Numbered from the stretch's first letter, positions 33,583-62,155 are shown. The stretch is 64,000 nucleotides of DNA from Rheinheimera sp. (GCA_037968955.1 JBBKWN010000146.1:1051-65050), one strand, 5' to 3'. The notes: a model not told the origin generated them from the letters alone. Made by a program: numbers and translations.

Positions 33583-33655
33583 CAGTCATGGTATTTTATA
33601 CAGTGTTTGAGCATCCATATTATTCTTTCAACGATAAACCTTAGTGGCGACCCTC

Positions 33656-34780
33656 ATGAAACCATTTAAATCTGTGTTGATTTCCCTTGGCTTGCTGGCG
33701 GTTTTGCTGGTAGTCATCGTCGGTATCAAAGCTGAACAGCTCGGTATGATGGCGCAAAGTGGCGCTAATTTTGTGCCGCCACCCGAGTCGGTCAGTTTGT
33801 ACACGGCGACAACCCAAAGCTGGCCACAAACCTACACCGCAATTGGCACCGTCGAAGCTGATGAAGGTATTACCATTTCGGCGCAGGTTGCCGGCAAGGT
33901 CAAACGAATTGCCTTTCAAAGTGGCGCCCGCGTTCGCGCCGGTGAAGTGTTAATTGAACAGGAATCTGTTAACGAGCGAGCGCAGCTCAATGCGGCAGTC
34001 GCCCGACTGAAATTGGCGCAGTCTAACTATCAACGCCTTGATGAACTGCGTAACCGTAAAATTGCCAGCCAAAGTGAGTTGGATGGCGCAGTGCAGCAGG
34101 TGGAATCAGCCAAAGGTGACGTCGACGATTTACGGGCAACCTTAGAGAAAAAACAAATTCGGGCGCCTTTTGATGGCCGCGTTGGTATTCGTCAGGTTGA
34201 TTTAGGTACTGATTTACAAGTTGGCGCGGCTATTGTGTCACTGCAAGCCACCAACAGAGTGCGGGTCAATTTCCCGATCGCCCAAGATTGGTTGGTTCGG
34301 ATCACCCCAGGTTTGGCGGTCAGTGTTGCAATTGGCGATGCGCAGAATTCGGTGGTGGCCGGTGAAATTACTGCGATAGGTGCTGAAATTAATCCATTAA
34401 CACGAAATGCGGTGGTGCAGTCGTCACTCGAGAATCCGGACAACCGGTTAATCCCTGGCATGGCAGTGTCGTCGACCGTGACTTTGCGCGAGCCGTTAAC
34501 CGTGTTAGCAGTACCATCGACCGCCATTATTTATGCACCTTTTGGCGATACCGTATTTGTGGCAGACAAAGATGCAAAAACTGGCGCTTTCGTGGCGCGG
34601 CAACAGTTTGTGCGGCTGGGTAAAACGCGCGGCGATTATGTTGAAATTGTCGACGGCGTCAAAGCGGGTGAGCAAGTTGTCAGTGCTGGGGCTTTTAAAT
34701 TGTTTAATAAACAATCGCTGGTGGAATCAACGCTGCCAACACCAGAATTTAAAACTGAGCCAACACCGCCTAATAGCTAA
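33656..34780 (+). CDS. RND efflux periplasmic adaptor (membrane fusion protein)
   Basis: N-terminal anchor helix followed by HlyD/AcrA-type lipoyl, hairpin and beta-barrel pattern (GTVEADEGITISAQVAGKV ... IRAPFDGRVG). It immediately precedes the RND pump. Confidence 0.88.
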   Translation: MKPFKSVLISLGLLAVLLVVIVGIKAEQLGMMAQSGANFVPPPESVSLYTATTQSWPQTYTAIGTVEADEGITISAQVAGKVKRIAFQSGARVRAGEVLIEQESVNERAQLNAAVARLKLAQSNYQRLDELRNRKIASQSELDGAVQQVESAKGDVDDLRATLEKKQIRAPFDGRVGIRQVDLGTDLQVGAAIVSLQATNRVRVNFPIAQDWLVRITPGLAVSVAIGDAQNSVVAGEITAIGAEINPLTRNAVVQSSLENPDNRLIPGMAVSSTVTLREPLTVLAVPSTAIIYAPFGDTVFVADKDAKTGAFVARQQFVRLGKTRGDYVEIVDGVKAGEQVVSAGAFKLFNKQSLVESTLPTPEFKTEPTPPNS

Positions 34781-34824
34781 CGTTTTTTCCTGTGACGACC
34801 CGAACCTTTTTACCTAGGTGAAGC

Positions 34825-37800
34825 ATGAATATTACTGATATTTTTATCAAAAAACCGGTGTTAGCTATTGTTGTTAGCTTATTGATTTTGCTCGCTGGTT
34901 TTCAATCGTTGAGTACCTTATCTGTCCGGCAATACCCGCGTAGTGATATTGCGGTGATTAAAATTACCACGGTGTACGTGGGGGCCAACTCTGAGTTAGT
35001 CCGCGGTTTTATTACCAGTCCGATTGAGCGTGCTATCGCATCGGCCGGTGGCATCGATTACGTTGAATCGCAAAGTACGATGGGCGTTTCAACCATCAGT
35101 GCGCATTTACATTTAAACTACGATCCCCTCAAAGCAATGACTGAGATCACCGCCAAAGTGAATCAGGTGCGCGGCGAGCTGCCGCCTGAAGCGGAAGTGC
35201 CTTCTATCGCGATTGAAGCGGCCGATAGCCAGTTTGCTTCAGCCTACTTAAGTTTTAGTTCGGACATTCTGGCGCAAAATCAAATTACTGAGTTTTTATC
35301 GCGCTCAGTACAGCCGCGATTGATCGCCATTTCCGGTGTCCAAAAAGCCGAAATATTGGGTGGTCGAACTTTTGCCATGCGGATTTGGTTAAAACCAGAG
35401 AAAATGGCCGCTTATAGTGTGACTCCAAGCGATGTCAGAACCGCATTGGCCAATAATAATGTGCAAGCAGCGATTGGCCAGACCAAAGGTACTTACACCG
35501 CCGTCAATCTTAGCGCCAACGCCGACATGACCAATGTAGAGGATTTCAAACGCCTAGTCGTGCGGCAAAATTCCGATGGTGTGGTGCGGTTGCAGGATAT
35601 TGCCGATGTGGTGCTCGGCGCTGATGATTACAGCGTTGAAGTTAATTACTCCGGTCAGACGGCGGTATTTATGGGCGTGTTTGTGGCGCCAAACGCCAAC
35701 AGCCTCGATGTGATTAAAAAGGTCACTGAGGAAATGAAAGCTATTCAGGCCGACTTGCCGGCCGGTTTAAGTGGCGAAGTCTCCTATGACGCGACCAAAT
35801 ACATTCAGGCGGCAATTGATGATGTGATCAAAACGCTGGCAGAAACGTTGACCATTATTATCATCGTTATTTTCCTATTTTTAGGCTTTAGCCGCTCGGT
35901 ATTAATTCCGGTGATTGCCATTCCATTGTCGTTGATCGGTGCGCTGTTTATTATGAAGTTGTGTGGTTTTTCACTCAATTTGCTCACATTATTGTCAATA
36001 GTGCTGGCGGTCGGTCTTGTTGTCGATGACGCCATTGTGATGGTTGAAAACATTGAGCGGCATATTCAGGAAGGGTTAAAACCATTTCAGGCGTCGCTGG
36101 TTGCCGCGCGCGAACTGGCTGGGCCGGTTATTGCAATGACGGTCACCTTGATGTCGGTGTACGTGCCTATTGGCTTGCAGGGCGGTTTAACCGGCACTTT
36201 ATTTCGTGAGTTTGCCATCACACTCGCCGGCGCGGTGGCTATTTCAGCCATTGTTGCTATTACCTTGTCGCCGATGATGGCATCGAGAATGCTCAAACCG
36301 CACACCGAATTAAAAGCACCCTTATCGAAAATATTTGACCGTTTTACCGTCTTTTACAGTCGAAAACTAAACCAGACCCTGCAAAACCGGCTTGGGATTT
36401 ATATCTTCTGGCTGGGTATCACTGCGATGACGGTGCCACTTTATATGTTTTCGGCAAAAGAGTTAGCGCCCAATGAAGATCAAGGCGTTATTTTCGGCAT
36501 TGTTGACGCGTCAGCCAACGCCACCATTGACCAATCGGCTTTTTATGGCAAACAAGCTAATCAGGTATTTATGAATGTGCCTGAAACCGACTTTACCTTC
36601 CAGATCACCTTTCCCAGTGGTGGTTTTGGCGGTATGGTGGTGAAACCATGGGACGAGCGGGAACGCACCACGGCCGAAATTTTGCCGGAAGTACAACAGA
36701 AATTAAGTGAGATTGCCGGCATCCGTATTTTCCCAATTGTGCCCGCAGCGTTACCTGGTGGGGGGCAGTTCCCGGTGGAGTTTGTTATTGCCTCGACGGC
36801 GGACTCGCGGGAAATTTATGACTACGCCTTAAAACTGCAAGAAACATTAACTGCCAGTGGCATGTTTGCTTTCCCGCCGATGCTCGATATGAAAGTCGAC
36901 CAACCAGAATACCGGTTGCATATTGACCGCGAAAAAGTAGCGGATTTGGGGCTGGATATGCGTACCGTCACCCAGGATTTGGGTACTTTGCTGGGCGGCG
37001 GTTACGTTAATCGCTTTAATATGTCTGGGCTCAGTTATAAAGTGATCCCACAAGTACAGCGTTCAGGGCGATTAAACCCTGAAGATCTCGAAAATCTCTA
37101 TATCACCGGCCCTGAGAATAGCCTGATTCGGCTAGACCAAATTGCCAGTATGACGCATGACACCGTGCCACGTAGCATCAATCGGATGCAGCAATTGAAT
37201 GCGGTGAAAATTAGTGGGGTGACCATCCAGCCGTTAGACGCCACGTTGACCTACATGGAAAAAGAGGCGAAAAAGCTGTTGCCAGCCAGTTATTCAATTG
37301 ATTACACAGGGGAATCACGTCAGTTAAAGCGGGAAGGGAACACCTTCTTGCCGGCATTTTTAACAGCGTTGACGATGATATTCCTGGTTCTTGCAGCGCA
37401 GTACAACAGTTTCCGTGATCCGATTGTGATCCTTGCCGGCTCAGTGCCGCTGGCGATGTTTGGTGCTTTGTTGTTTACCTTCTTAAAAATGTGGGCACCG
37501 ATGCCGCATTACACCGATGCGATTACCAGTACGCTGAATATCTACTCACAAGTGGGTCTGGTGACCTTAGTGGGCTTGATTGCGCGCAATGGTATTCTGG
37601 TGGTGGAATTTGCCAACAGATTACAAGAAGAAGGTTTAAGTAAAATTGAAGCGGTGCGTCAGGCGTCGGTATTGCGGTTGCGGCCGGTATTGATGACCAG
37701 TATCGCCACTGTTGCCGGCCATACGCCGCTGATTTTTGCCGAAGGTGCCGGCGCTGCAGCGCGCAATTCTATTGGTATTGTGCTGGTATTGGGGATGACC

Positions 37801-37905
37801 GTCGGTACTATTTTCACCTTGTTTGTCTTGCCGTCTATTTATGTGTTGTTGGCGAAGGATCATCAAGCAGACCAAGCGAAAGTTCAGGCGTTAGAGTCAG
37901 CATAA
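34825..37905 (+). CDS. RND (AcrB/HAE1-type) efflux transporter permease
   Basis: 1026 aa. The N-terminus IFIKKPVLAIVVSLLILLAG is typical. It has 12 TM segments with two large periplasmic loops and the conserved VVDDAIVMVENIERH motif. Confidence 0.93.
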   Translation: MNITDIFIKKPVLAIVVSLLILLAGFQSLSTLSVRQYPRSDIAVIKITTVYVGANSELVRGFITSPIERAIASAGGIDYVESQSTMGVSTISAHLHLNYDPLKAMTEITAKVNQVRGELPPEAEVPSIAIEAADSQFASAYLSFSSDILAQNQITEFLSRSVQPRLIAISGVQKAEILGGRTFAMRIWLKPEKMAAYSVTPSDVRTALANNNVQAAIGQTKGTYTAVNLSANADMTNVEDFKRLVVRQNSDGVVRLQDIADVVLGADDYSVEVNYSGQTAVFMGVFVAPNANSLDVIKKVTEEMKAIQADLPAGLSGEVSYDATKYIQAAIDDVIKTLAETLTIIIIVIFLFLGFSRSVLIPVIAIPLSLIGALFIMKLCGFSLNLLTLLSIVLAVGLVVDDAIVMVENIERHIQEGLKPFQASLVAARELAGPVIAMTVTLMSVYVPIGLQGGLTGTLFREFAITLAGAVAISAIVAITLSPMMASRMLKPHTELKAPLSKIFDRFTVFYSRKLNQTLQNRLGIYIFWLGITAMTVPLYMFSAKELAPNEDQGVIFGIVDASANATIDQSAFYGKQANQVFMNVPETDFTFQITFPSGGFGGMVVKPWDERERTTAEILPEVQQKLSEIAGIRIFPIVPAALPGGGQFPVEFVIASTADSREIYDYALKLQETLTASGMFAFPPMLDMKVDQPEYRLHIDREKVADLGLDMRTVTQDLGTLLGGGYVNRFNMSGLSYKVIPQVQRSGRLNPEDLENLYITGPENSLIRLDQIASMTHDTVPRSINRMQQLNAVKISGVTIQPLDATLTYMEKEAKKLLPASYSIDYTGESRQLKREGNTFLPAFLTALTMIFLVLAAQYNSFRDPIVILAGSVPLAMFGALLFTFLKMWAPMPHYTDAITSTLNIYSQVGLVTLVGLIARNGILVVEFANRLQEEGLSKIEAVRQASVLRLRPVLMTSIATVAGHTPLIFAEGAGAAARNSIGIVLVLGMTVGTIFTLFVLPSIYVLLAKDHQADQAKVQALESA

Positions 37906-38407: not shown

Positions 38408-41400
38408 ATGCAAAATTTAACACGTTATTGGGCTGCTTTTTGTATTGCCATGACCATAGTCAGTAGCGCGGCTTATGCGGCGTCCATTCCAAGTAATCTT
38501 ACGATAGATTTTAATAGCGCTGGCTTTGGGAATAATGTCAGTCATGGTTCTAATACGTTTACCCAGGGCGATATTACTATCACTTACAATGAAGGGAATT
38601 GGTATCAGGTGACAACTAATGGTCAGGCTGGTACCGCCGCCTTGTTTGCGCCATATTCTAGTGGTTTTACCGAAACAGTCACAATACAAACCACTTCAGG
38701 TGACGAATTTGATTTTGTAAGTTTTTATTATAACAAGGGTTTTGACAACGTTGGCGTAGTAAAAGGTTATCGTAACGGCGGCTTGGTTGCTTCTGAAACG
38801 CCAGCAACAGGCAGCGGTACCAAGTCTTTCAGCGCAAGTTTTGATGCGGTAGACCGGGTGGTCATTAGTTCGGGTAGCAATGGTTTTTATGATTATTTTG
38901 ATACCTTTGTGTTAAACACCGCGACATATCCAGCCGCCACTATCACCAGCGCCACCTACGATGCCAATACGGGTGTGCTTGCTGTCACCGCCGTTGATAT
39001 GACCGTCAGCGATACCATTGATGTCTCTAAACTTACCTTAACCGGGCGCAATGGCGGTAGTTATACCCTGACCAGCGCCAATGTTGCTGCCACCAATGCC
39101 ACGGCTTTTGCGGTGACGTTAAATGCCAACGACAAACGTGTTGTGAATGGTTTACTGAATAAAAACGGTACTGCGTCGGTGGATACGACTACTTATAATC
39201 TAGCTGCCGCGACCAACTGGGATCAGACCGCTTCTGCGGCCGCTGATTTAACCGGCAACGGTATTACCGTCAGTAATGTTGCAACGCCTACACTAACTTC
39301 TGCCACATATGACAGCAGCACCCATGTACTTAGTGTCACCGGCACTAATCTGGTTAGTATTTTGGGTGCAACTAATGACATTGTGGTCAGTTATTTAACC
39401 TTCACCGGCGAAGGTGGGGCGACTTATACCTTAACCAGCAGTGATGTTGACATCACTAGTGCAACTGCATTTACAGTGACATTAAACGGCACTGATCAGG
39501 CGGGCGTGGAACCTATGCTAAATAAAAATGGCACCAGCTCAACCTCCGGGACAACTTATAACCTGGCCGCCGCTGATGATTGGAATAGTGAGGTCACCGG
39601 AGGCAATATTGCCGACCTGGCCGGCAACGGTGTGACCGTTTCTAATGTGCCTGTTCCTACAATTACTGCCGTATCCTATGACGCCAGCACTGGTGCTTTG
39701 GTGGCTGCGGGTACGAACTTTGTTTCAAAAGCTGGCGCTGCCAATGACATCGTGGCCAACAAAATGACCTTTCGAGGTGAGGCTGGCGCGACTTACACCC
39801 TGACCGATACCAGCGATGTTGAGATTAGCTCCCAAAGCAGTTTTACCTTGACTCTAAGCGCCACTGATAAGGCCGGCGTTAATCTGATCGTGAATAAAAA
39901 TGGCGGCTCTTCCACTGATAGTTCTACCTATTTATTCGATGCCGCTGAGGATTGGAATGCCGGGGCCGAGGCTGTATTGAACATTGCTGATGCATCGAAC
40001 AATATGACTGCCAGCAATGTCGCGGTGCCGACGATTACCAGCGCACTATACAGTGCATCTACCGGCGTATTAACGGTCAGTGGTACAGGCTTTTCCCGCA
40101 AAGGGGGCGCCACCAACGATATCGTTGCCAATAAGTTTACGCTTACCGGTGAGTCAGGTGGCACATACACTTTAACGGACACCGCGAATGTGGAGGTTAC
40201 CTCGGGTAGCAGCTGTACTCTGACCTTAAGCGCTACTGATAAAACGGGCGCGAATGCAATTTTAAATAAAAACGGCACCAGCTCAACGGACAATACCACC
40301 TACAATTTAGCCGCGGCAGAAGATTGGGCGGCAGGCGCCGATGCAGCTGTGACCGTCGCTGATTTAGCGGGCAATGGTATTTTGGTCAGCAACGTTTTTG
40401 CAGTACCGGGTGCACCCACTATCGGCACTGCCACTGCAGGGGATACTCAAGTCAGCGTGTCCTTTAGCGCGCCAGCTTCCGATGGCGGTACAGCAATTAC
40501 CGGCTATACCGTAACGTCAAACCCTGGCGGTGCCAGTGTATCTGGCGCTAGTGGCCCCTTGGTTGTTACCGGCTTAACCAATGGTGTTGCTTATACCTTT
40601 ACCGTGACGGCGACCAATAACGTCGGTACCGGTTCAGCCTCGGCGGCTTCAAACAGCGTGACGCCAAAGGCCGCTCAAATCATTACCTTTAATAATCCAG
40701 GGGCACAAAATTTTGACAGCACACCCACCTTGTCTGCCACGGCAAGCTCGAGCTTAGCACCAAGCTTTAGTTCAGCGACTACAGGGGTGTGTACCATCAC
40801 TAGTGGTGGGGCTTTAACCTTTGTGACAGCAGGCACTTGTACTATTAATGCCGATGAGGAGGGTAATGGCAGTTACTTAGCGGCAGCCACCGTAGCGCGA
40901 TCATTTAGTGTTAATGCAGTGGTCCCAGGCGCCCCTACCGCAGCGTCGGCTACCGCAAGCGATACGCAAGCTAGCGTAGCTTTCTCTGCGCCCGCATTTA
41001 CCGGTGGCGCTGCAATTACAGGTTATACCGTGACTTCAAGCCCCGGTGGGTTGACTGGTGCAGGGGTTGTTTCACCTCTGACGGTTACAGGCCTCACTAA
41101 CGGCGTTGCTTATACCTTTACCGTCACGGCGACTAACTCGGCGGGCACTGGTACAGCATCTGCGGCCACTAGCAGTGCTACGCCGAAAGCAACACAAAGC
41201 ATTAGCTTTGCCAATCCCGGTGCACAAAACTTTGGCACTGCCCCCACTTTGAGTGCAACCGCAGATTCTGGTTTGACGCCGATATTTACCTCGGCTACAA
41301 CTGGGGTTTGTACAATTACTAGCGGCGGGCAGCTAACAACTGTCACTGCAGGAACTTGTACAATTAATGCCAATGAGGCAGGAGACGGTACTTATTTAGC

Positions 41401-44400
41401 TGCTGCACAAGTGAGTCGTTCATTTAGTATCAATGCAATAGTTCCGACGGCCCCGACTGCCGCGAATGCGCTTGCAGGCGATGCTCAGGCAACTGTCAGT
41501 TTTACTGCGCCTGCTTTCACCGGCGGTGCCGCTATTACTGGCTATACCGTAACCTCCAATCCTGGCGCTATTACCGCCTCTGGTTCAGGTTCGCCAATCA
41601 CGGTCAGTGGCTTAACGAATGGCACGGCTTATACTTTTACCGTCACCGCGACCAACAGTGTTGGCAGCAGCGGGGCGTCTGCAGCTTCCAACAGTGTGAC
41701 GCCGCAGGTTCCAAATTCCGCGCCAACAATTAGCGGCAGTCCTGCCACTTCGGTGGCGCAGGATACGGCTTATAGTTTCACGCCGCTTGCCAATGATGCT
41801 GATACCGGTACTACCCTCACGTTTAGTATTAGCAATCAACCCGCGTGGGCTACTTTTGACACCACCTCCGGCACTTTAGCGGGGACGCCAGCCAAAAGTG
41901 CTGTCGGCAACTATCCAGCGATTGTGATTAGCGTCTCTGATGGCAGCCTGAGCGCGGCGCTGCCGGCATTTAGTATCGAAGTGACTAATGTCAACGACGC
42001 TCCCACGATTAGCGGTGCACCCGCCACCACCGTGGCGCAGAACGCGACCTATAGCTTTATACCAACTGCCAGTGATTTGGATGCCGGCACTACTCTGACA
42101 TTCAGTATCAGCAATAAACCTGCATGGGCTGCCTTTAGCACCACGACCGGCGCTTTAACCGGGACGCCATCACAAAGTGATGTAGGTAGTTATGCCGGTA
42201 TTGTGATTTCAGTGTCTGACGGCATCTTAAGTGCGTCACTGCCTGCTTTTAATATCGACGTTACTAATGTCAACGATGCGCCAACGATTAGCGGTTTGCC
42301 GATGACGTCGGTGGCACAGGGTGTAGCTTATAGCTTTGTGCCAACAGCCAGCGATCCAGACACCGGCAGCACGTTATCTTTTACCATCAGTAATAAACCT
42401 GCCTGGGCGACATTTGATTCTGCCACTGGTGCGTTAACCGGCACCCCAAAACGAGCTGATGTCGGAACGACGCAGGGCATTGTTATTTCAGTTTCTGACG
42501 GTGAGCTCAGTGCCAGTCTTGCCGCTTTTAATTTGGAGGTGTTTTCCACGAACTCGGCGCCAACGGCCATTGATGATAACTTGACGCTGCCTTTTAGCTT
42601 GAATAACCGCTATCAACTGAATGTCACGGCCAATGACACCGATCCAGAGCAAGACGCGTTGTTGGTGACCGCGGCGAATAGCAGCGCAGGCCAAGTCAGC
42701 ATTGTAGATAATCAACTGTTACTGCAGGCTCCGGCCAACTTTCATGGCACCGTCAATTTAACTTACAGCGTGTCTGATGGTGAGTTTAGTGCTCAGGCAA
42801 AAGTAAGTTTATTGATTTCCGGCAGTAATCCGGATGCACCAAAAATAACGGTTCCTAATGATATTCGCATCAATGCGACCGGCCTTTTAACCAAGGTTGA
42901 TGTCGGTGTTGCCACGGCTATTGATGCTTTGGGAAATCGTATTGCGGTTAATTTAGATAATGGACGGCCGGTATTTAGCCCAGGTAAGCATCAACTGTAT
43001 TGGCGCGCGACGGATGCAAAAGGCGTGACCAGTGTGGCAAGCCAGCTGTTAGAAATTAAGCCGTTGTTGTCGTTGAGTAAACCTAAAGTCACCGCCAACA
43101 ATACTCAGGTGAGTGTGGACGTATTACTCAATGGCCCTTCGCCAGTGTATCCCGTAGACGTCGCCTATAGTGTCAGCGGCAGCGCCACGCCATTGGCCGA
43201 CCATGACTTAACCAGCGGTGTGCTGCAAATTACTTCCGGCACCAGCGCCACCATCAACATCAAGGTGTTTGCCGATTTAGTCACCATAGCGGAAAAAGAC
43301 TTGGTGGTTACCTTAACTGGTGATGCCAATCTGGGCGCCGACCGCAGTACCCGCATTTTAATTACCGACCGCAATTTGCCGCCAACTGTGGCGTTAACCG
43401 CGACACAACAATCGACCACCGGTGGGCTCTTTAGTATCACCGCAGGCGCTATAGTTGTCGATGCTCAGGTTGTTGATGCCAACACGGCAGACACCGTTAC
43501 CCGGCAATGGTTGACCGATCCTGCGTTAATCAACATTGCCACTGATCCGGCCAAGTTTGAATTTGACCCCGCATCGCTTGCGCCCGGAGTGTATAAGGTC
43601 GCATTGCAGGCAACCGACAATGCCAACGAGCCGCTTAGCGTTACCAAAGAACTATTGTTGCGGATTGTTAAAGATTTGCCTGTGCTTGGCAGTGGCGACA
43701 GTAATAACAATCTGATCCCTGATAATATTGAAGGCGCGGGAGATAGCAATGGCAATGGTATCCCGAACTATCTGGATAACATGCCGAGCACTAATATCTT
43801 GCCACAAGTCATTACAGTGACTAACTCTTACCTGCTGGAGTGTGATCCGGGCGTGCGCTGTGGTTTAGGTTTGTTTGCCTTAGGCGGTCAATCGGGTGGT
43901 GTGCAAATTCTGAATAGCGAATTAGGTGGTTCGAATCAAGTACCACTGGATGAGAGTTTCACCCCAGTCGGCGGTATCTTTGATTTTGTCATCGATGAAC
44001 TACCGACGCCTGGTCAACAAGTCAGCATCGTAATTCCACAAATCGAACCAATCCCTCGCGCAGGTACATATCGCAAGTTCCAAAAAGGACGCTGGGTGAG
44101 CTTCATTGAAAATGCGAATAACCGTCTGGCCTCCGCTCAGGGCAGTGCCGGTTATTGCCCACCACCAGGCGCAGCTGAATGGCAACCAGGGTTAATTGAA
44201 GGCTATCACTGTGTGCAGTTAACTATTGAGGATGGCGGGCCGAATGATGACGACGGCCTTGTTAATAGTGCAGTTTCTGATCCAGGTAGTGTGATGGTGC
44301 CGCGCAGTAATAATCAGCTGCCTAAAGCCATGGCAGATACTTATTCACTGCAGTGGAATCAAGCGCATCAACTTCGTGTGCTGGACAATGATAGCGATGC

Positions 44401-45562
44401 CGATGGTGATGCTCTGAGTATCTATCAAGCATCGGCAGCCTTTGGCCAGGTGACTGTGAGCACGGATGGCCAAAGTCTGTGGTATACACCCAACAACGAT
44501 TTTATTGGTACAGACGTGGTGAACTACAGTGTGCGTGATGGCAAAGGCGGCAGTGCAACAGCGACCGCCACCATCACGGTGTATTACAATCGCGCGCCAG
44601 TGGTGAAAGATAGTACGGCCAGCACCAATGATCGCACGGTGATTGACATTGCCGCCCTAACTGGTGCTAGTGATGCCGATGGCGACACGCTGAGTATCGT
44701 CAGTGCCACGGCGCAAAAAGGCGCAGTAAGCATTATCAATAGCCAAACATTGCGGTATACCCCAGTGACTGGCTTTCATGGCACTGACACTATTAGTTTT
44801 AATGTCAGTGACGCACGTGGTGGGCTGGTGAGCGCCAAAGTCACTGTCGCTGTGACCGCCTTTGAGGTGATTACGGTCGAGAATAAATCGTCAGGAGGAA
44901 CAGTTTCTGGTTGGCCATTGGCACTGTTAACGTTGTTGGCAGCTTGCCGGCAACGCCGGACGCTGAGCACGGTGCTATTAGCGCTGACTGCAAGCTTGAG
45001 TTTCAATGCTCAGGCGACATGGTCGGTAGACGGTTTTTATGGTCAAAGCAAAGTGAAACCATCACGCAGCGGCATTGGCGGCAGTTTGCCAGCCAATACC
45101 GCCATTGTGGACTATGACGATTCGGGCCGCAGCTGGTCATTGGGGGGGAATTATCACTTTAACCCAGCATTGGCTGTGCAGATACAATATGTTGATTTAG
45201 GTGATGCCAGTGTGACATTGCGGGCGGATACACTGACTCCGGATCAATTTTATCAGGCCGTGTCGACCGTTGGGCCGATGCAGGCCGATGGGATCCGCAG
45301 CGGTTTGTCTTATCAATTTTGGCAATACAGCGACTGGTCATTTGGGGTACAAGGGGGGGTATTTGTTTGGCAAAGCAGCAGCACTAGCGCCAGGCTGAAT
45401 GAGGTGATCCATTACAGCGCAAATGCGACGGACTTTTATTGGGGGTTAAGTGGTAGTTACCTGCTCGATCCACAGCTGAGTCTGCAAACCAGCTTTACCC
45501 GCTATCAACTTGCTACCAATAAGGTTGACGCGTTGATGGTTGGGATCAATTATCGATTTTAA
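38408..45562 (+). CDS. Giant (2384-aa) mosaic cell-surface / adhesin-like protein
   Basis: SD GAGGG lies 9 nt upstream. The Sec signal peptide is MQNLTRYWAAFCIAMTIVSSAAYA-AS. The domains run in this order: an unassigned N-terminal domain; 4 x ~120-aa repeats; 3 FN3 domains alternating with 2 Ig-like modules; 3 cadherin-like (dystroglycan/He_PIG-type) domains; a cadherin-like/VCBS-type domain; a HYR-like domain; a Calx-beta-like domain; an Ig-like domain; a TSP3-like Asp/Asn loop (DSNNNLIPDN...DSNGNGIPNYLDN); a domain ending EDGGPNDDDGLVNSAVSDPG (choice-of-anchor-like); 2 more cadherin-like domains; a GlyGly-CTERM-like segment; and a signal-peptide-like segment with a beta-barrel. Confidence 0.85.
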   Translation: MQNLTRYWAAFCIAMTIVSSAAYAASIPSNLTIDFNSAGFGNNVSHGSNTFTQGDITITYNEGNWYQVTTNGQAGTAALFAPYSSGFTETVTIQTTSGDEFDFVSFYYNKGFDNVGVVKGYRNGGLVASETPATGSGTKSFSASFDAVDRVVISSGSNGFYDYFDTFVLNTATYPAATITSATYDANTGVLAVTAVDMTVSDTIDVSKLTLTGRNGGSYTLTSANVAATNATAFAVTLNANDKRVVNGLLNKNGTASVDTTTYNLAAATNWDQTASAAADLTGNGITVSNVATPTLTSATYDSSTHVLSVTGTNLVSILGATNDIVVSYLTFTGEGGATYTLTSSDVDITSATAFTVTLNGTDQAGVEPMLNKNGTSSTSGTTYNLAAADDWNSEVTGGNIADLAGNGVTVSNVPVPTITAVSYDASTGALVAAGTNFVSKAGAANDIVANKMTFRGEAGATYTLTDTSDVEISSQSSFTLTLSATDKAGVNLIVNKNGGSSTDSSTYLFDAAEDWNAGAEAVLNIADASNNMTASNVAVPTITSALYSASTGVLTVSGTGFSRKGGATNDIVANKFTLTGESGGTYTLTDTANVEVTSGSSCTLTLSATDKTGANAILNKNGTSSTDNTTYNLAAAEDWAAGADAAVTVADLAGNGILVSNVFAVPGAPTIGTATAGDTQVSVSFSAPASDGGTAITGYTVTSNPGGASVSGASGPLVVTGLTNGVAYTFTVTATNNVGTGSASAASNSVTPKAAQIITFNNPGAQNFDSTPTLSATASSSLAPSFSSATTGVCTITSGGALTFVTAGTCTINADEEGNGSYLAAATVARSFSVNAVVPGAPTAASATASDTQASVAFSAPAFTGGAAITGYTVTSSPGGLTGAGVVSPLTVTGLTNGVAYTFTVTATNSAGTGTASAATSSATPKATQSISFANPGAQNFGTAPTLSATADSGLTPIFTSATTGVCTITSGGQLTTVTAGTCTINANEAGDGTYLAAAQVSRSFSINAIVPTAPTAANALAGDAQATVSFTAPAFTGGAAITGYTVTSNPGAITASGSGSPITVSGLTNGTAYTFTVTATNSVGSSGASAASNSVTPQVPNSAPTISGSPATSVAQDTAYSFTPLANDADTGTTLTFSISNQPAWATFDTTSGTLAGTPAKSAVGNYPAIVISVSDGSLSAALPAFSIEVTNVNDAPTISGAPATTVAQNATYSFIPTASDLDAGTTLTFSISNKPAWAAFSTTTGALTGTPSQSDVGSYAGIVISVSDGILSASLPAFNIDVTNVNDAPTISGLPMTSVAQGVAYSFVPTASDPDTGSTLSFTISNKPAWATFDSATGALTGTPKRADVGTTQGIVISVSDGELSASLAAFNLEVFSTNSAPTAIDDNLTLPFSLNNRYQLNVTANDTDPEQDALLVTAANSSAGQVSIVDNQLLLQAPANFHGTVNLTYSVSDGEFSAQAKVSLLISGSNPDAPKITVPNDIRINATGLLTKVDVGVATAIDALGNRIAVNLDNGRPVFSPGKHQLYWRATDAKGVTSVASQLLEIKPLLSLSKPKVTANNTQVSVDVLLNGPSPVYPVDVAYSVSGSATPLADHDLTSGVLQITSGTSATINIKVFADLVTIAEKDLVVTLTGDANLGADRSTRILITDRNLPPTVALTATQQSTTGGLFSITAGAIVVDAQVVDANTADTVTRQWLTDPALINIATDPAKFEFDPASLAPGVYKVALQATDNANEPLSVTKELLLRIVKDLPVLGSGDSNNNLIPDNIEGAGDSNGNGIPNYLDNMPSTNILPQVITVTNSYLLECDPGVRCGLGLFALGGQSGGVQILNSELGGSNQVPLDESFTPVGGIFDFVIDELPTPGQQVSIVIPQIEPIPRAGTYRKFQKGRWVSFIENANNRLASAQGSAGYCPPPGAAEWQPGLIEGYHCVQLTIEDGGPNDDDGLVNSAVSDPGSVMVPRSNNQLPKAMADTYSLQWNQAHQLRVLDNDSDADGDALSIYQASAAFGQVTVSTDGQSLWYTPNNDFIGTDVVNYSVRDGKGGSATATATITVYYNRAPVVKDSTASTNDRTVIDIAALTGASDADGDTLSIVSATAQKGAVSIINSQTLRYTPVTGFHGTDTISFNVSDARGGLVSAKVTVAVTAFEVITVENKSSGGTVSGWPLALLTLLAACRQRRTLSTVLLALTASLSFNAQATWSVDGFYGQSKVKPSRSGIGGSLPANTAIVDYDDSGRSWSLGGNYHFNPALAVQIQYVDLGDASVTLRADTLTPDQFYQAVSTVGPMQADGIRSGLSYQFWQYSDWSFGVQGGVFVWQSSSTSARLNEVIHYSANATDFYWGLSGSYLLDPQLSLQTSFTRYQLATNKVDALMVGINYRF
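38929..40399 (+). repeat. Four tandem ~117-125-aa protein repeats of an unassigned type (approximate bounds)
   Basis: Repeat starts lie near 38929, 39281, 39650 and 40022. The shared pattern is PT(I/L)TSA.YD..TG.L.V.GT.......ND.......(F/L)TG..G..YTLT....V...S...FT.TL...D......LNKNGT.S....TYNLAAA.DW. Confidence 0.8.
40403..41712 (+). repeat. FN3 / Ig-like module array (FN3-Ig-FN3-Ig-FN3), approximate bounds
   Basis: VPGAPT...D.Q..V.FSAPA..GG.AITGYTVTS.PGG...GLTNG.AYTFTVTATN recurs 3 times. It is separated by Q.I.F.NPGAQNF...PTLSATA.S.L.P.F.SATTGVCTITSGG.LT.VTAGTCTINA.E.G.G.YLAAA, which recurs 2 times. Confidence 0.8.
41713..42546 (+). repeat. Three tandem ~95-aa cadherin-like (dystroglycan-type) domains, approximate bounds
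   Basis: The pattern APTISG.PATSVAQ...YSF.P.A.D.D.GTTLTFSISN.PAWA.F....G.L.GTP....VG.Y..IVISVSDG.LSA.LPAF.I.VTNVNDAP recurs 3 times. Confidence 0.8.
44891..44959 (+). other. GlyGly-CTERM-like sorting-signal segment, internal to the ORF
   Basis: SGGTVSGWPLALLTLLAACRQRR: Gly-Gly, a hydrophobic helix and an Arg cluster. No stop codon follows. Confidence 0.6.
44960..45559 (+). other. Signal-peptide-like segment plus a 181-aa OmpA/OmpX-class beta-barrel-like domain, in frame with the adhesin
   Basis: TLSTVLLALTASLSFNAQA-TWSVDGFYGQSK... has an alternating hydrophobic strand pattern and ends VGINYRF, the terminal aromatic typical of OMPs. Confidence 0.6.
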
Positions 45563-45592
45563 CTGAACGCTTTTACTGCAAGATTTAAGTAT

Positions 45593-45617
45593 AAAAAGGC
45601 GCCTTGGGCGCCTTTTT
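45593..45617. terminator. Bidirectional rho-independent terminator between the adhesin and cca
   Basis: aaaaaggcgcc, loop ttg, ggcgccttttt: a perfect 11-bp stem with an A-tract and a T-tract. Confidence 0.8.
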
Positions 45618-45759
45618 AAATCAAGGTGCAACCGTTTGCTACCTCGGTAACCGCAGCTAGCTATTGTTGCATTCCGCTCTGTTCTAATAAGATAAACGTA
45701 CCGTTATGGGTGCCAATACCTGATGCCGATTGAGCGAGATTTTGGCGAAGCCCATCGCT

Positions 45760-47001
45760 TCAGCTTGGAGTCGCTTGCAACCCGGCGTTGGTCTGACGGA
45801 TGGCTTCAAGTCTGGCTTTTTTAACCGCTTCTTTCATCGCCTCACCTTGATGGCCAAACGCTACCAGTGCTTTCATATTGATGCCGCGGGCGGCTTTGGC
45901 AAGTGCGCGCAAATAATCGGCTTGTGGGTAATCCGCGTTTTCAAAACCAGTACGACCGCGTAAATCGGCCATACAGCAGGTGAGGAGCAGTTCCAGCCGT
46001 TCCGGTCGGCGCCACAGGTCAATACCATCAAATAGCTTTTGGACGGTGACGGATCGCAGTTCAAAGGCTTTATGCACTTGCTGGTGAAATTGACTGGCTA
46101 ATAACGCAAGCTCTTTACAATCATTCGGGACCCGCACGCGCTGACAAAGCGTTTCAATCAGCGGCAAGCCTAACATTTCATGGCCGTGGTGGGCTGGCCA
46201 CTGCTCGGGCGGCGTGGCGCCTTTGCCTACATCATGGCATAACGCGGCAAACCGAACATCTAGCCTTGGTGATAACAATGCAGCTTGTGCCAACACCAGC
46301 ATAGAATGGATACCGGTATCAATTTCCGGATGCCATTTGGGTGGATTCGGAATACCCCAGAGTTTATCCAGTTCCGGCATCAGCACAGCGAGAGCACCCA
46401 CTTCATGCAACAACTCAAAATAAGGCGTTGGGGTATTTTCCTGTAGTGCGCGGGCGGTTTCCTGCCACACTCGCTCGGCGGTTAAGTGTTGCATTTCGCC
46501 TTGCTGCACCAGCTGTTGCATCAGGGCTTTGGTTTCGTCGGCGACGCGAAAGCCAAGCGGAAAAAATCGGGCGTAAAACCTCGCCACCCGCAGTACCCGC
46601 AACGGATCTTCAACAAAAGCCGGTGATACATGGCGCAGCAGCCGTTGCTCTAAATCATGTTGGCCACCATAAGGGTCAAATATTTCACCGGTTTCTTCGT
46701 CTTGCGCCATGGCGTTGATGGTGAGATCGCGGCGCATTAAGTCCTGTTCCAGCGTCACATCAGGCGCAAAATAACAGGCAAAACCGGTGTAACCTTGGCC
46801 TTGTTTACGCTCGGTACGAGCCAGTGCATATTCTTGTTTAGTTTTTGGATGCAAAAATACCGGAAAGTCTTTGCCAACACTCTGGTACCCTTGAGCGAGC
46901 AGTTGTTCCGGCGTCGCGCCAACTACTAGGTAATCGCGGTCTTTTTGTGGCAGAGCGAGTAAGGCGTCGCGTACGGCGCCGCCAACAAGATAGTTCTTCA
47001 T
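45760..47001 (-). CDS. cca: CCA-adding tRNA nucleotidyltransferase with HD domain
   Basis: The Met at 47001 gives [12 protein letters not shown]... and 413 aa (E. coli Cca is 412 aa). HD motif CHDVGKG. The ORF-track start at 47139 is an unsupported extension. Confidence 0.93.
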
Positions 47002-47193
47002 ATGCTTTCCTGACTGCGGATTTTTTGCCATTATATACCCGCCGAACTTGAAGCTGCAGCTTTGTTGCTGTCGCTTTGCGGGCTCGGTTGCCACAACAAG
47101 GATGCTGATGGCTCTCGAACACTTGTCACCGCGCTGCAACTTCCATTATTGTGGGTGGTCAGCAAAAGTCGCCTAACCGATGATCAGGATGTT

Positions 47194-48114
47194 ATGTACA
47201 CCGGATTTTTTGGCCTGAACAGCCAGCCATTTTCAATTGCACCCAACCCCGACTTTATGTATCTCGGAGCCCGTCACACTGAAGCGCTAGCGCACTTGCG
47301 CTACGGCCTTGGTGATGCCGGTGGTTTTGTGCTGCTAACCGGCGAGGTGGGCACCGGCAAGACAACCGTCTCGCGTTGTTTGCTAGCAGAGTTACCGGAA
47401 CATACCCAAGTCGCTTTTATATTAAATCCAACCTTATCAGAACTAGAATTGTTGGCGGCGATTTGTGACGAGTTAAAAATCCGTTATAAAAAAGCCGATG
47501 CCAGTTTAAAAATGCTAACGGATAAAATTACCGCCAAATTGCTGAAGAACCATCAGGCGGGCTTAAATACCATTCTGATTATTGATGAAGCCCAGCATTT
47601 GCAGCCGGCGGTGTTAGAGCAATTGCGGTTGTTAACCAATCTCGAAACCAATACTAAAAAGCTGCTGCAGGTGATTTTAATCGGCCAACCGGAACTGCAG
47701 CAGCTGTTGCAACGTCAGGATTTACGCCAATTAGCACAGCGAATTACTGCTCGTTATCATTTAATGCCGCTGACATTTGCTGAAGTGCGGTTTTATGTGC
47801 AACATCGGTTGCAGGTCGCGGGTTGTAGTCGGCCGGTGTTTACCGACAGTGCTTTTAAAAAGCTATTTCAGTTGTCAGGGGGGATTCCAAGGTTAGTGAA
47901 TCTGATTTGTGACCGCGCCTTGTTAGGGGGTTATAGTCAGCAAAAACCATTAATCGATGGCAAGCTGGTACAGCAGGCTGCTGGGGAAATTTTGGCCATT
48001 CGCCAACCTGATCCCGCGGCGCACTGGCCACTGTGGCTGTGGCCGTTATTATTTATGTTTTGTGTCGCTTTGGGTGTGGCTCTGGCGCGTGGGTTGAATT
48101 TAGCAGGAGTCTGA
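47194..48114 (+). CDS. gspA: ExeA/GspA-like AAA ATPase (short form with a C-terminal TM and no periplasmic domain)
   Basis: ATG 47194 gives MYTGFFGLNSQPFSIAPNPDFMY, a typical ExeA/MshM N-terminus. Walker A GEVGTGKTT and Walker B IIDEAQHL. The C-terminus WPLWLWPLLFMFCVALGVALA is a TM segment. Confidence 0.85.
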   Translation: MYTGFFGLNSQPFSIAPNPDFMYLGARHTEALAHLRYGLGDAGGFVLLTGEVGTGKTTVSRCLLAELPEHTQVAFILNPTLSELELLAAICDELKIRYKKADASLKMLTDKITAKLLKNHQAGLNTILIIDEAQHLQPAVLEQLRLLTNLETNTKKLLQVILIGQPELQQLLQRQDLRQLAQRITARYHLMPLTFAEVRFYVQHRLQVAGCSRPVFTDSAFKKLFQLSGGIPRLVNLICDRALLGGYSQQKPLIDGKLVQQAAGEILAIRQPDPAAHWPLWLWPLLFMFCVALGVALARGLNLAGV

Positions 48115-48118
48115 AAAC

Positions 48119-49003
48119 ATGTCGTTATTGATGGAAGCACTAAAACAGCAGCAAAGCGGCGCGGCTGAATCAACCGCCGGGCCTGTGGGTCATGCACAAA
48201 GCCGAGCGCCAGAATTTGGCCAAGGTGCCGGGCAAAACAGTGGGCAAGGTTGGAAATTGCTGGCATTAGGGTTGTTGGTGGTGGTCGGCTTGTTAGCCGG
48301 ATTTTTACTGGCATCACTGCTGCAACGGCCGCCAGCAGTCGCGACCGCAGCGCCGCCACCGGCCAGCGCTGGACAAATTCTCACCGAATTATTAACCAAG
48401 CCCGCTGCCAGCGATACAAAAGACTCACTCGATGCCGAACCGCAGCTACTGGTGTCGGCTGACAAACCGGTCACGAGCAATAGCAAAACCGGGCAAACGT
48501 TAGAGCAACAGGTGCAAATGGTGACGTCTGCCAATGATGACATGGCGATGGACGACGCGTCGTTTGCCGCGCAGCCAGCTATGGCTGAAGCCGATGTCGA
48601 TGAACCGGTGGTTGAAGTTCGGGCGAAAGCCTCAGAGCTGACGGCGGCTGAGGTTTCGGATGAACTGCGTAGTAAATTTGCGCTGGCGTTGCAGCAGTCA
48701 GATCCGCTGCCGCGCCATCAGTCGGTGACTGAACATGCGGCGCCGGCGCGCGACATTCAAACGCTGGACGACCTATTGCAACGTCAAATTCCGCCACTGC
48801 GCTTTGAAGCGCATATTTATGCTTCCGATCCAAAACAGCGTTGGGTCAAGGTCAACGGCAAAGATTTACAGGAAGGACAGTGGGTGACCGCCGACATTCA
48901 ACTCAAAGAAATCACTTCACAATATGTGTTGCTGCAAACCGGCCGCCAAATGTTTAGCATGGAAGCCCTTAGCGAATGGTCGTATCGGCTGCCCAAACCA
49001 TAA
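48119..49003 (+). CDS. gspB: GspB/ExeB-like type II secretion accessory protein
   Basis: It lies immediately after gspA. N-terminus MSLLMEALKQ, a single TM, a low-complexity linker, and a C-terminal PLRFEAHIYASDPKQRWVKVNGKDLQEGQWV pattern typical of GspB. Confidence 0.7.
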   Translation: MSLLMEALKQQQSGAAESTAGPVGHAQSRAPEFGQGAGQNSGQGWKLLALGLLVVVGLLAGFLLASLLQRPPAVATAAPPPASAGQILTELLTKPAASDTKDSLDAEPQLLVSADKPVTSNSKTGQTLEQQVQMVTSANDDMAMDDASFAAQPAMAEADVDEPVVEVRAKASELTAAEVSDELRSKFALALQQSDPLPRHQSVTEHAAPARDIQTLDDLLQRQIPPLRFEAHIYASDPKQRWVKVNGKDLQEGQWVTADIQLKEITSQYVLLQTGRQMFSMEALSEWSYRLPKP

Positions 49004-57645: not shown

Positions 57646-57683
57646 GAGGCAGTCATGCTTAACTTAATAAATTGAAGGTGAAT

Positions 57684-58130
57684 ATGATGAGTAAATTACT
57701 AATTAAAAAAGTTTTAACCTCAGAAGCGGGTTTTGGCGCTTTGGCTTTACGGCTGCCGGTGGGGATTATCTTTGCCGCACACGGTGCACAAAAGTTGTTT
57801 GGCTGGTTTGGTGGTTATGGCTTGGAAGGCACCGGCGGCTGGATGGAGAGTATCGGTCTGGCCCCCGGAGTGCTGATGGCTTTGTTAGCCGGCGCTGCAG
57901 AGTTCTTTGGTGGTTTGGCGTTGGTGCTTGGTCTGCTGACCCGTCCGGCAGCTTTTGCCCTGTCCATTGCGATGGTGGTGGCGATTTTTAGTGTGCACTT
58001 TGCCAACGGCCTGTTTATGAGCAACAACGGTTATGAATTTGCTCTGGCATTGCTGGCCGCGAGTGTGTCGCTGTTATTTAGTGGCGCTGGTAAAGCATCG
58101 GTCGACGCACTACTGGCGAAAAAACTGTAA
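57684..58130 (+). CDS. DoxX-family membrane protein
   Basis: The motif LRLPVGIIFAAHGAQKLFGWFGGYG is typical of DoxX. 4 TM. ATG 57684 follows GAAGGTG. Confidence 0.85.
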   Translation: MMSKLLIKKVLTSEAGFGALALRLPVGIIFAAHGAQKLFGWFGGYGLEGTGGWMESIGLAPGVLMALLAGAAEFFGGLALVLGLLTRPAAFALSIAMVVAIFSVHFANGLFMSNNGYEFALALLAASVSLLFSGAGKASVDALLAKKL

Positions 58131-61504: not shown

Positions 61505-62155
61505 TTACATCCAGCGATCTTTGCGGCGACGATTTGGCATAATGACGGGCAAAATTAAACCAAGTAATAAACCCGCAGCAAGAATGCCGCCACCAATCAC
61601 CAGTTTATTCTGCGCCAGCGGCGGGTTTTGCTCAGCCAGTTGTTTGGTCAGCGCCGATGTGGTGAGTTTGGCCAATTCTGCTTCTTGAATCGCTTGATCA
61701 CGTGCCGCTTCGGCAGTCGTTACCATCGCTTGCATCGTTGTTCTTTCTTGTTCGAATTGCGCCGAAATCATTTCCTGCTGGCGTAATTGCTGCTTTAAGC
61801 TTTCCAGACTGGATTTTGGGCTCGCCAGATCGGTGATGTATTCACCGCTAAGCCAACCTTCATTTCCAGCATCATCACGAATTTTGATAAAACCATTGGC
61901 TGGGTTTTGCCCGATATAAGTGACACTTTCACCCGCCTTTACCGTTGAAATACTGCGATATTCGTTACCAGGGCCGGTTCGCACTGCGGTACTGAGTGTA
62001 TCGATAATAAACACCGGTTTTTCATTGCTGGCTGGTTTTTCTTCGACGGTTGGCGTCGTTTCAACCGGAGTCTCCTGCGCCGTTAGCGATAAGCTGGCCG
62101 ACAATACCGCGCAGTAAAAAGAGTAATAACAAACAGAGCGAAACAAATCAGACAT
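61505..62155 (-). CDS. ygiM: SH3-domain protein with a C-terminal membrane anchor (YgiM family)
   Basis: Signal-like N-terminus, SH3b segment (VRTGPGNEYRSISTVKAGESV...GWLSGEYI), coiled coil, and TM plus RRRKDRW tail. Adjacent to and divergent from ygiF, as in E. coli. Confidence 0.8.
   Translation of the reverse strand: MSDLFRSVCYYSFYCAVLSASLSLTAQETPVETTPTVEEKPASNEKPVFIIDTLSTAVRTGPGNEYRSISTVKAGESVTYIGQNPANGFIKIRDDAGNEGWLSGEYITDLASPKSSLESLKQQLRQQEMISAQFEQERTTMQAMVTTAEAARDQAIQEAELAKLTTSALTKQLAEQNPPLAQNKLVIGGGILAAGLLLGLILPVIMPNRRRKDRWM

Follow-up and report, generated by a model that had tools for sequence, protein, structure and literature searches.

In Myxococcus xanthus, the large adhesin MXAN_5598 carries an internal MYXO-CTERM tag followed by an outer-membrane barrel and an OmpA domain, a layout that has been likened to TraA plus TraB; in the proposal of its authors, the N-terminal portion undergoes processing and becomes anchored at the cell surface (PMC11980579). 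The traA gene lies just upstream of traB with a 4-base overlap, and the OmpA-like TraB is required for TraA function (PMC3325183). In the GlyGly-CTERM protein VesB, rhombosortase cuts after …SASSGG and a glycerophosphoethanolamine-containing moiety joins the new C-terminal Gly; once modified, VesB needs the type II system for its export (PMC6219818). Such a cut and attachment are known for VesB only. Here we describe a gene of Rheinheimera sp., located in a stretch of 64,000 nucleotides (GCA_037968955.1, JBBKWN010000146.1:1051-65050; hereafter the window), in which a giant adhesin, a GlyGly-CTERM-type sorting signal, a signal peptide and a small outer-membrane barrel follow one another. We propose that this gene encodes a natural polyprotein, comprising a giant adhesin and a dedicated OmpA-like barrel partner, and we put the probability of this reading, including its full pathway, at roughly 0.65.

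The gene is a single plus-strand open reading frame (ORF), 38408..45562, which starts with ATG and encodes 2384 aa plus a stop in the ORF listing of the window. A prediction made earlier from the DNA of the window (the original prediction) held that it reads in frame through a GlyGly signal into a signal peptide and a barrel, and this proved exact to the residue. In the translation and the raw DNA, adhesin, sorting signal, signal peptide and barrel share one uninterrupted frame, with neither a stop nor a frame change at the junction. The public collection of the National Center for Biotechnology Information (NCBI) holds an identical 2384-aa protein (P0004). The parts of the gene are listed below, where a slash marks a predicted cleavage site, as it does throughout the text.

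38408..45562, plus strand: whole precursor (ORF listing, translation)
38408..38479, plus strand: predicted N-terminal Sec-type signal peptide, aa 1-24, MQNLTRYWAAFCIAMTIVSSAAYA/AS (hydrophobic core plus AYA)
38480..44860, plus strand: passenger, a repetitive adhesin (Pfam and NCBIfam scans)
44861..44890, plus strand: conserved strand FEVITVENKS just 5' of Gly-Gly (alignment, AlphaFold)
44891..44959, plus strand: internal GlyGly-CTERM-type domain, aa 2162-2184, SGGTVSGWPLALLTLLAACRQRR (TIGR03501)
44960..45016, plus strand: h- and c-regions of the putative internal signal peptide, aa 2185-2203, TLSTVLLALTASLSFNAQA (homologue alignment)
45017..45559, plus strand: predicted OmpA/OmpX-like 8-stranded barrel, aa 2204-2384, 181 aa (PF13505, AlphaFold, Foldseek)
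45592..45618, no strand assigned: terminator-like hairpin and T-run, common to the convergent pcnB (folding)

In the translation, aa 2152-2184 read ...FEVITVENKS-SGG-TVSGWPLALLTLLAAC-RQRR. The GlyGly-CTERM segment is thus laid out as an SGG motif, a hydrophobic helix of 13-16 residues (44909..44947) and RQRR (44948..44959). The barrel starts with TWSVDGFYGQSK and ends in VGINYRF, followed by TAA. The hairpin and T-run lie 30 nt 3' of this stop (-17.7 kcal/mol, z = -3.77); a consensus terminator scan missed them and folding made them visible. The position of this hairpin suggests that the transcript ends after the barrel.

Could the junction be an accident? The original prediction had itself named a recent fusion or an assembly error as one explanation. 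On this view, two neighbouring genes became joined without any functional meaning, whether through a lost stop, an indel, a join made in assembly or a very recent fusion by accident. In line with this, two-gene versions of the locus exist, so one lost stop could fuse them, and the relative P0002 in locus L001 is a truncated copy of 375 aa. The wider comparison points the other way. When the last 260 residues served as query, a word-indexed search returned P0002 at 45% and P0003 at 41% identity, both with an unbroken junction. Three further sources came from a genome scan, namely a 92%-identical metagenome-assembled genome (MAG), the isolate Rheinheimera baltica DSM 14885 (52% identity, 3276-aa ORF, junction NKSSGGTFNGWPLLLLSMLLVLRRKPGVAVIATLLSALSFNAQA/NWS) and an uncultured Rheinheimera. 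The in-frame junction is common to four independent relatives at 41-92% identity, far more than chance would allow. Between the window and the 92% relative, junction and barrel differ by 16 synonymous and 17 non-synonymous codon changes and by no indel, and the substitutions in the junction are conservative. The junction persists in relatives of 41-52% identity, and it is present in an isolate genome as well as on complete chromosomes; we therefore reject a recent fusion or assembly error, and an artefact of any kind appears extremely improbable. The fusion is real and conserved, of which we are practically certain.

The extent of the family also speaks against an artefact. The C-terminal module, 232 residues long, was turned into a profile (from alignment A3) and searched against 1.84 billion representative proteins, which gave 1283 matches at E≤1e-3; of these, 387 reach E≤1e-10 and 56 reach E≤1e-30. 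Among the best 150 matches, 88 are long proteins of 300-5009 aa, the class that we call fused (at least 300 aa). In these, the match to the module lies at the very C-terminal end or close to it, and mostly begins within the first ten profile positions. Another ~45 of the best 150 measure 185-230 aa and match only from profile position ~35-50; these are barrels that start with a signal peptide of their own. Fused members from complete or isolate genomes include proteins of Agarivorans (3414 aa), Shewanella youngdeokensis (4875 aa) and Pseudoalteromonas luteoviolacea (5009 aa), and the fused gene lies on complete chromosomes in Agarivorans and Shewanella. The layout is conserved in many marine gammaproteobacteria. 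Current annotation describes the fused members only as 'Ig-like', 'VCBS' or 'tandem-95 repeat' proteins; since they are named by repeat type alone, their architecture is invisible in databases.

The anatomy of the junction could be parsed in 91 family sequences with two hydrophobic segments. The motif typically reads N-K-S-S-G-G, and the first hydrophobic segment has a median length of 16 residues. The loop that separates it from the second segment is short (median 6 residues, range 2-32) and positively charged, with a median net charge of +4 and at least +2 in 90 of the 91. All 91 have small residues at -3 and -1 before the barrel, with Ala at -1 in 79; the commonest site is SQA/NW. In most members the internal segment has lost its Met and has nevertheless kept its charge, its hydrophobic core and its A-x-A pattern, which again argues against a functionless join. 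By its sequence, this junction pattern bears the hallmarks of a membrane hairpin whose basic loop faces the cytoplasm, with a signal peptidase I site after it.

In other loci, adhesin and barrel are encoded by two genes. The adhesin of L006 ends in ...HVVITNKSTGGSVTLWWIVSGLGIFALRRRTLISIRNH and a stop (NKSTGG, helix, RRRTLISIRNH). An 18-nt spacer with the ribosome-binding site AAAGGAA follows, and then an ATG and MKMSVINRVAGTTTKNLLACALTYSLSSGAVQA/QW..., which is the start of barrel P0031. In L007-L009, the adhesin end ...TNTSRGGGAMAWWFIGIVSLLAYRRKMTRV...GS overlaps the gene of barrel P0041 by ATGA, and this barrel has a signal peptide of its own (MKRRHIKNKH...SHA/NNW). Of six stand-alone barrels checked, P0031 and P0041 are encoded directly 3' of an adhesin and P0049, P0053 and P0062 are not; the contig of the sixth, P0059, is too short to place it relative to an adhesin. 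The question whether one ORF or two genes is the rule in related loci, raised with the original prediction, thus has a double answer, as fused and split forms both occur and are interleaved by barrel similarity. For several stand-alone or split barrels the nearest relative is a fused protein, a different one in each case, at 36-58% identity. These varying partners argue for repeated fusion or fission.

The split forms also inform on the second hydrophobic segment. In the window protein it has a possible n-region (RQRR), a hydrophobic core (TLSTVLLALTASLSF) and small residues at -3 and -1 (NAQA/T), all as in a signal peptide, and it departs from one in its location, as even the n-region begins only at residue 2181. 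Homologues that are split or stand alone have the equivalent segment at the N-terminus, and it aligns with the internal one. Because these barrels start with an aligned signal peptide, the internal segment is the counterpart of a genuine N-terminal signal peptide. It is predicted to behave as one, with a signal peptidase I site at AQA/TW. In line with this, the original view of the last ~200 codons as an outer-membrane protein precursor that lacks only its Met holds.

A barrel precursor hidden in a longer frame could also be made separately, by internal translation initiation just before the second hydrophobic segment. P0018 (...SKMSKQKVAAKSVAVLALAG) and P0019 indeed retain a Met before the internal signal peptide, and the window has an in-frame GTG at Val2189. 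Most members, however, have no Met there, including the window protein, R. baltica, P0002 and P0003. Initiation at the GTG would yield a product without a charged n-region, no Shine-Dalgarno-like sequence precedes this codon, and a scan found no promoter-like site near 44900-45000. We therefore give little credence to a separately initiated barrel and return to the polyprotein.

By sequence, the first hydrophobic segment is a GlyGly-CTERM domain, as the original prediction had suspected. The window segment (SSGGTVSGWPLALLTLLAACRQRR) matches TIGR03501 over the complete profile (1-22 of 22) with 16.8 bits, narrowly above the cut-off of 15.5, and shows the tripartite sequence of the domain. Across the family the match is broader: 69 of 90 excised segments match TIGR03501 at E≤0.02 (best 9.5e-8). 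The tails of 20 out of 27 family members align with the extreme C-terminus of NF038111 (profile 1184-1314 of 1315), a rhombosortase-dependent M36 metallopeptidase family whose members truly end at that point; the window tail scores 19.8 bits (E = 1e-4). As in GlyGly-CTERM proteins, the chain is predicted to start with an N-terminal signal peptide. Its hydrophobicity is 2.51, and a comparable N-terminal hydrophobic segment is present in 32 of 60 full-length family members. The strand that precedes the Gly-Gly follows the family consensus [AF]Y-E/Q-x-[VI]-x-V-x-N-K-S and is kept across the family, split forms included. Strand and motif share the invariant positions E, V, I, V, N, K, S, S, G and G (alignment A2). 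AlphaFold models EVITVENKSS with a predicted local distance difference test (pLDDT) score of ~93 from an input of 27 sequences and with low confidence from an input of 3.

The last domain is predicted to be an 8-stranded OmpA/OmpX-like barrel. PF13505 matches the last 223 aa with 32.1 bits against a threshold of 28.7, and the last 180 aa alone with 28.4, just below it. The AlphaFold model from 27 sequences has a mean pLDDT of 88.5, with values above 90 for the barrel (aa 2204-2384), in agreement with the β-barrel originally expected for the last 181 aa. The two helices (aa 2169-2182 and 2186-2197) reach only 50-65, as expected for segments that would live in the membrane and be removed. Top Foldseek matches in the PDB are the OmpA transmembrane domain, Ail, OmpX and NspA (E 1e-9 to 1e-6, template modelling (TM) score up to 0.79). 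The chain ends in Y-R-F, an aromatic terminus typical of signals for the β-barrel assembly machinery (BAM). The barrels of relatives include matches to PF01389. The AcfA family model NF033908 matches 19 of 27 family tails (best 7.8e-10), with no match for the window barrel. TIGR04565 (OMP_myx_plus) is weak on the window protein (16.4 bits against 60) and was seen in 7 of 27 relatives. In P0117 and P0142, the order SSGG, helix, basic cluster, signal peptide and barrel is extended by an OmpA peptidoglycan-binding domain, which is absent from the window protein.

With signal peptide, passenger and C-terminal barrel in this order, the protein is reminiscent of an autotransporter. The barrel might then translocate or anchor a passenger that stays attached, as in a type V-like or new secretion device, and the helices would be linkers rather than membrane segments. 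Foldseek does return the barrels of EstA, EspP and NalP, albeit weakly (ranks 27-37, TM score 0.2-0.34). The best fold matches (OmpA, OmpX and Ail), however, have eight strands and no pore, which agrees with the earlier judgement that the barrel is too small for an autotransporter, and the Pfam scan of the window protein gave no autotransporter match. The linker consists of two hydrophobic helices with a basic loop between them, as is characteristic of a hairpin in the membrane. Moreover, the split forms, in which the barrel is unattached and has its own signal peptide, are incompatible with a type Va mechanism. Overall, a type V-like device is very unlikely.

The comparative data thus favour the polyprotein-like design that the original prediction had put forward as its other explanation. 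The architecture, its conservation, the homology of its parts and the alternation of fused and split forms are observed, and from them we infer the following steps. Guided by the N-terminal signal peptide, the passenger of ~2150 residues would pass through SecYEG until the GlyGly-CTERM helix (aa 2168-2180) acts as a stop-transfer sequence that leaves RQRR in the cytoplasm. The second hydrophobic segment (aa 2185-2199) would then insert in the opposite orientation, which would create a helical hairpin in the inner membrane and restart export for the last 181 residues. Cleavage by signal peptidase I after AQA (aa 2203) would free the barrel, and BAM would place it in the outer membrane via the C-terminal YRF signal. 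By analogy with VesB, rhombosortase would cut after SSGG (aa 2164) and leave the adhesin on an ethanolamine-phospholipid anchor, in which form it would be moved to the cell surface, probably via the type II system. There, the barrel may serve as the outer-membrane cohort of the adhesin, as TraB does for TraA. The fusion would enforce a 1:1 stoichiometry, with both parts released at one translocon.

Several points weigh against this pathway. Haft and Varghese defined GlyGly-CTERM as strictly C-terminal and its carriers as having 'no other transmembrane segment' (PMC3237569). Judged by its sequences, the fused family breaks both rules, the terminal position and the sole membrane segment besides the signal peptide: in the window protein, 200 residues follow RQRR in the same frame, and a second hydrophobic segment follows the basic cluster. 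Rhombosortase may have to accept a substrate that is still tied to this second helix. Both cleavages, by signal peptidase and by rhombosortase, are predicted, and the AQA site was assigned by a crude -3/-1 rule plus alignment. The type II system would have to export a rod of ~2150 residues, and the proposed role of the barrel draws on gene fusion, gene order and the TraAB analogy. Finally, we found no rhombosortase gene (TIGR03902) within the window, where ORFs with at least 3 hydrophobic segments were scanned against NCBIfam and Pfam, or in any fetched locus, where small polytopic ORFs were checked for the GxSG motif.

The missing rhombosortase, together with the narrow TIGR03501 score of the window segment, would also fit an anchor without sorting. 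Here, the hairpin would remain permanently in the inner membrane or be cut by signal peptidase only, and the GlyGly-like segment would be a plain stop-transfer sequence or a substrate of GlpG or another protease, with the adhesin periplasmic or shed. GlpG of V. cholerae is able to cleave VesB at a different position (PMC11389362). The family-wide matches to TIGR03501 and to the end of the rhombosortase-dependent NF038111 argue against this view, and the SSGG motif of the window protein is the same as the mapped VesB cleavage site. Fused members are present in Shewanella and Pseudoalteromonas, both listed as carriers of GlyGly-CTERM and rhombosortase (PMC3237569). A 2150-residue Ig-repeat adhesin also has no obvious role in the periplasm. 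We consider an anchor without sorting unlikely, though less so than the other alternatives, and retain the sorted polyprotein as the preferred reading.

Two other ORFs of the window deserve mention in the context of rhombosortase and its substrates. A 201-aa ORF with six hydrophobic segments (6496-7101, plus strand) is not a rhomboid, as it has neither a GxSG motif nor a match in Pfam or NCBIfam. The only other GlyGly-CTERM-like tail in the window and the fetched loci belongs to an SH3-and-anchor protein (61505-62155, minus strand; TIGR04211). This tail, GGGILAAGLLLGLILPVIMPNRRRKDRWM, is a look-alike that mimics GlyGly-CTERM and a trap for pattern searches. A literature search gave nothing that pairs Rheinheimera with rhombosortase.

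The passenger contains three fn3, three He_PIG and Big_9/Cadherin-like domains (Pfam, NCBIfam), and a borderline choice-of-anchor U match at aa 1855-1963. Five repeats of ~110 aa (38900-40400, aa ~170-660) are covered by no Pfam model and follow the pattern …SATYD..TGVL.VTGT…NKNGTSS…YNLAAA.DW…. The last Big_9 domain spans aa 2060-2150 and is modelled by AlphaFold with a pLDDT above 90.

Some family members deviate from the common layout. P0002 (L001/L004, 9131-10258, uncultured Rheinheimera MAG) consists of two Big_9 domains, the junction and the barrel, has no N-terminal signal peptide and starts 100 nt 3' of an EamA gene. This copy is probably either a remnant or the product of a break in the assembly. 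In P0138 (576 aa), Big_9 leads directly into the barrel (…VRHIEKPLLWYVWGDYGY…) without GG motif, helix or signal peptide, and an OmpA domain is found near the N-terminus. The giant members P0117 and P0068 have a ubiquitin-like start (MQIFVK…; PF00240 with 62 bits in P0117). In a bacterial adhesin exported by Sec, such a domain is unexpected; the start may be wrongly assigned, or a eukaryote-like domain may have been acquired.

The genes immediately upstream of the adhesin gene in the window, on its strand, encode a resistance-nodulation-division (RND) efflux pair, namely a membrane-fusion protein followed by an AcrB-like pump (33644-37905). Such pairs likewise occur next to the barrels of L005 (Shewanella sp. 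AS16) and L006. A conserved partnership was considered and dismissed, as the pump is absent beside the fused genes of Agarivorans and Shewanella youngdeokensis, and we treat it as local synteny. Around these two fused genes in complete genomes, neither type I secretion genes nor a conserved partner were found. Downstream, pcnB (45760-47139, minus strand) converges with the adhesin gene. Beyond it, 1.5 kb downstream, lie genes for a GspA/ExeA-like AAA ATPase and a GspB-like protein (47062-49003). GspA/ExeA and GspB are assembly factors for the type II secretin. With the related PEP-CTERM ATPase model, the ATPase stays under the cut-off. At 57672-58130 (plus strand), the window encodes an HvfX-like maturation protein for a copper-binding ribosomally synthesised and post-translationally modified peptide (72.9 bits against a cut-off of 80).

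If the preferred reading holds, sorting tags need not be terminal, contrary to the assumption of annotation pipelines, and GlyGly-CTERM would work in the middle of a protein. An internal signal peptide behind such a tag is a very rare arrangement in bacteria. Following the gene-fusion argument, the interleaved pattern of fused and split forms points to an OmpA-like barrel as the private partner of giant rhombosortase-type adhesins. This would provide the first testable candidate for a protein that holds or places lipid-tagged adhesins in the outer membrane, and the adhesin-barrel pair would be a gammaproteobacterial counterpart of TraA/TraB, itself poorly understood. The family would also be a natural test case for hairpin insertion, for the sequence in which signal peptidase and rhomboid cut and for BAM delivery from a polyprotein. 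More tentatively, and with considerable doubt, we suggest that the barrel is a dedicated docking or translocation partner for giant rhombosortase-processed adhesins, so that a sorting-tag protease and this private 8-stranded barrel would make up a widespread two-part display pathway, with adhesin and barrel encoded as a polyprotein that has an internal signal peptide or by overlapping genes. Such a pathway could be partly or wholly independent of the type II system and could parallel TraAB of Myxococcus and perhaps AcfA/AcfD of Vibrio. In V. cholerae, acfA (648 nt) adjoins acfD (4562 nt; VC0844/VC0845), and the two are co-regulated. This hints at a more general rule, by which small barrels may be paired with surface proteins of very large size.

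How does the window protein compare with known systems? VesB-type GlyGly-CTERM proteins, the substrates of rhombosortase RssP/RrtA (PMC3237569, PMC6219818), have the same SSGG, short helix, basic cluster and N-terminal Sec signal peptide. The classical proteins stop at the basic cluster, whereas the window protein continues for ~200 residues with a second hydrophobic segment. Searches of the rhombosortase literature found no description of an internal GlyGly-CTERM or of a fusion of GlyGly-CTERM with a barrel. OmpA (N-terminal domain), OmpX, Ail and NspA share a similar fold with the barrel, which likewise ends in an aromatic residue. These small barrels and AcfA are translated separately with an N-terminal signal peptide. 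Autotransporters of type Va have 12 strands, a pore-spanning helix and an obligatory covalent link. The window protein, in contrast, has 8 predicted strands and a hydrophobic hairpin with a basic loop, and two-gene versions exist. A giant adhesin secreted by type I (LapA/BapA/SiiE) was also considered and rejected, given the Sec-type N-terminus and a neighbouring RND pair rather than an ATP-binding cassette (ABC) exporter. That class is marked by the lack of a Sec signal peptide, by a C-terminal type I signal and by adjacent genes for an ABC transporter, a membrane-fusion protein and TolC. For the internal cut, a parallel is the cytochrome b/c1 precursor FbcH of Bradyrhizobium, a natural polyprotein that Thony-Meyer and colleagues (~1989-1991) reportedly found to be cut by signal peptidase, at an internal signal behind membrane helices, into two envelope proteins. 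Its products are said to be inner-membrane respiratory subunits, with neither a sorting tag nor an outer-membrane protein.

The closest likeness is to the TraA/TraB and MXAN_5598 type, in which a tagged adhesin is followed by a barrel partner, either fused or in an overlapping gene; both forms are found here. In layout, the family resembles TraA/TraB as a tagged adhesin with a barrel partner, and the ATGA of L007-L009 is the same 4-base overlap. TraB is larger, with about 400 residues before its OmpA domain, and TraA, which functions in kin recognition and membrane exchange, bears MYXO-CTERM, whereas the tag of the window family is GlyGly-CTERM. The original prediction knew of no described example of an internal tag followed by a barrel, and here MXAN_5598 corrects it (PMC11980579). 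MXAN_5598 and the window protein share the order of adhesin, mid-protein tripartite tag and outer-membrane barrel. The additional OmpA peptidoglycan-binding domain of MXAN_5598 is shared by P0117 and P0142 and not by the window protein. The tags differ, as MYXO-CTERM has an invariant Cys and the window tag reads SSGG with no motif Cys (TIGR03901 16 bits against 20). The processing enzyme would differ accordingly, a rhomboid-type rhombosortase for the window tag and a CPBP-type myxosortase for MXAN_5598. The latter is a single protein, raised in a discussion, whereas here we find a large gammaproteobacterial family, likened to it by layout, with an explicit internal signal peptide and with split forms. 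Taken together, the window family is, by analogy of layout, the gammaproteobacterial GlyGly-CTERM counterpart of MXAN_5598, and a far more numerous one.

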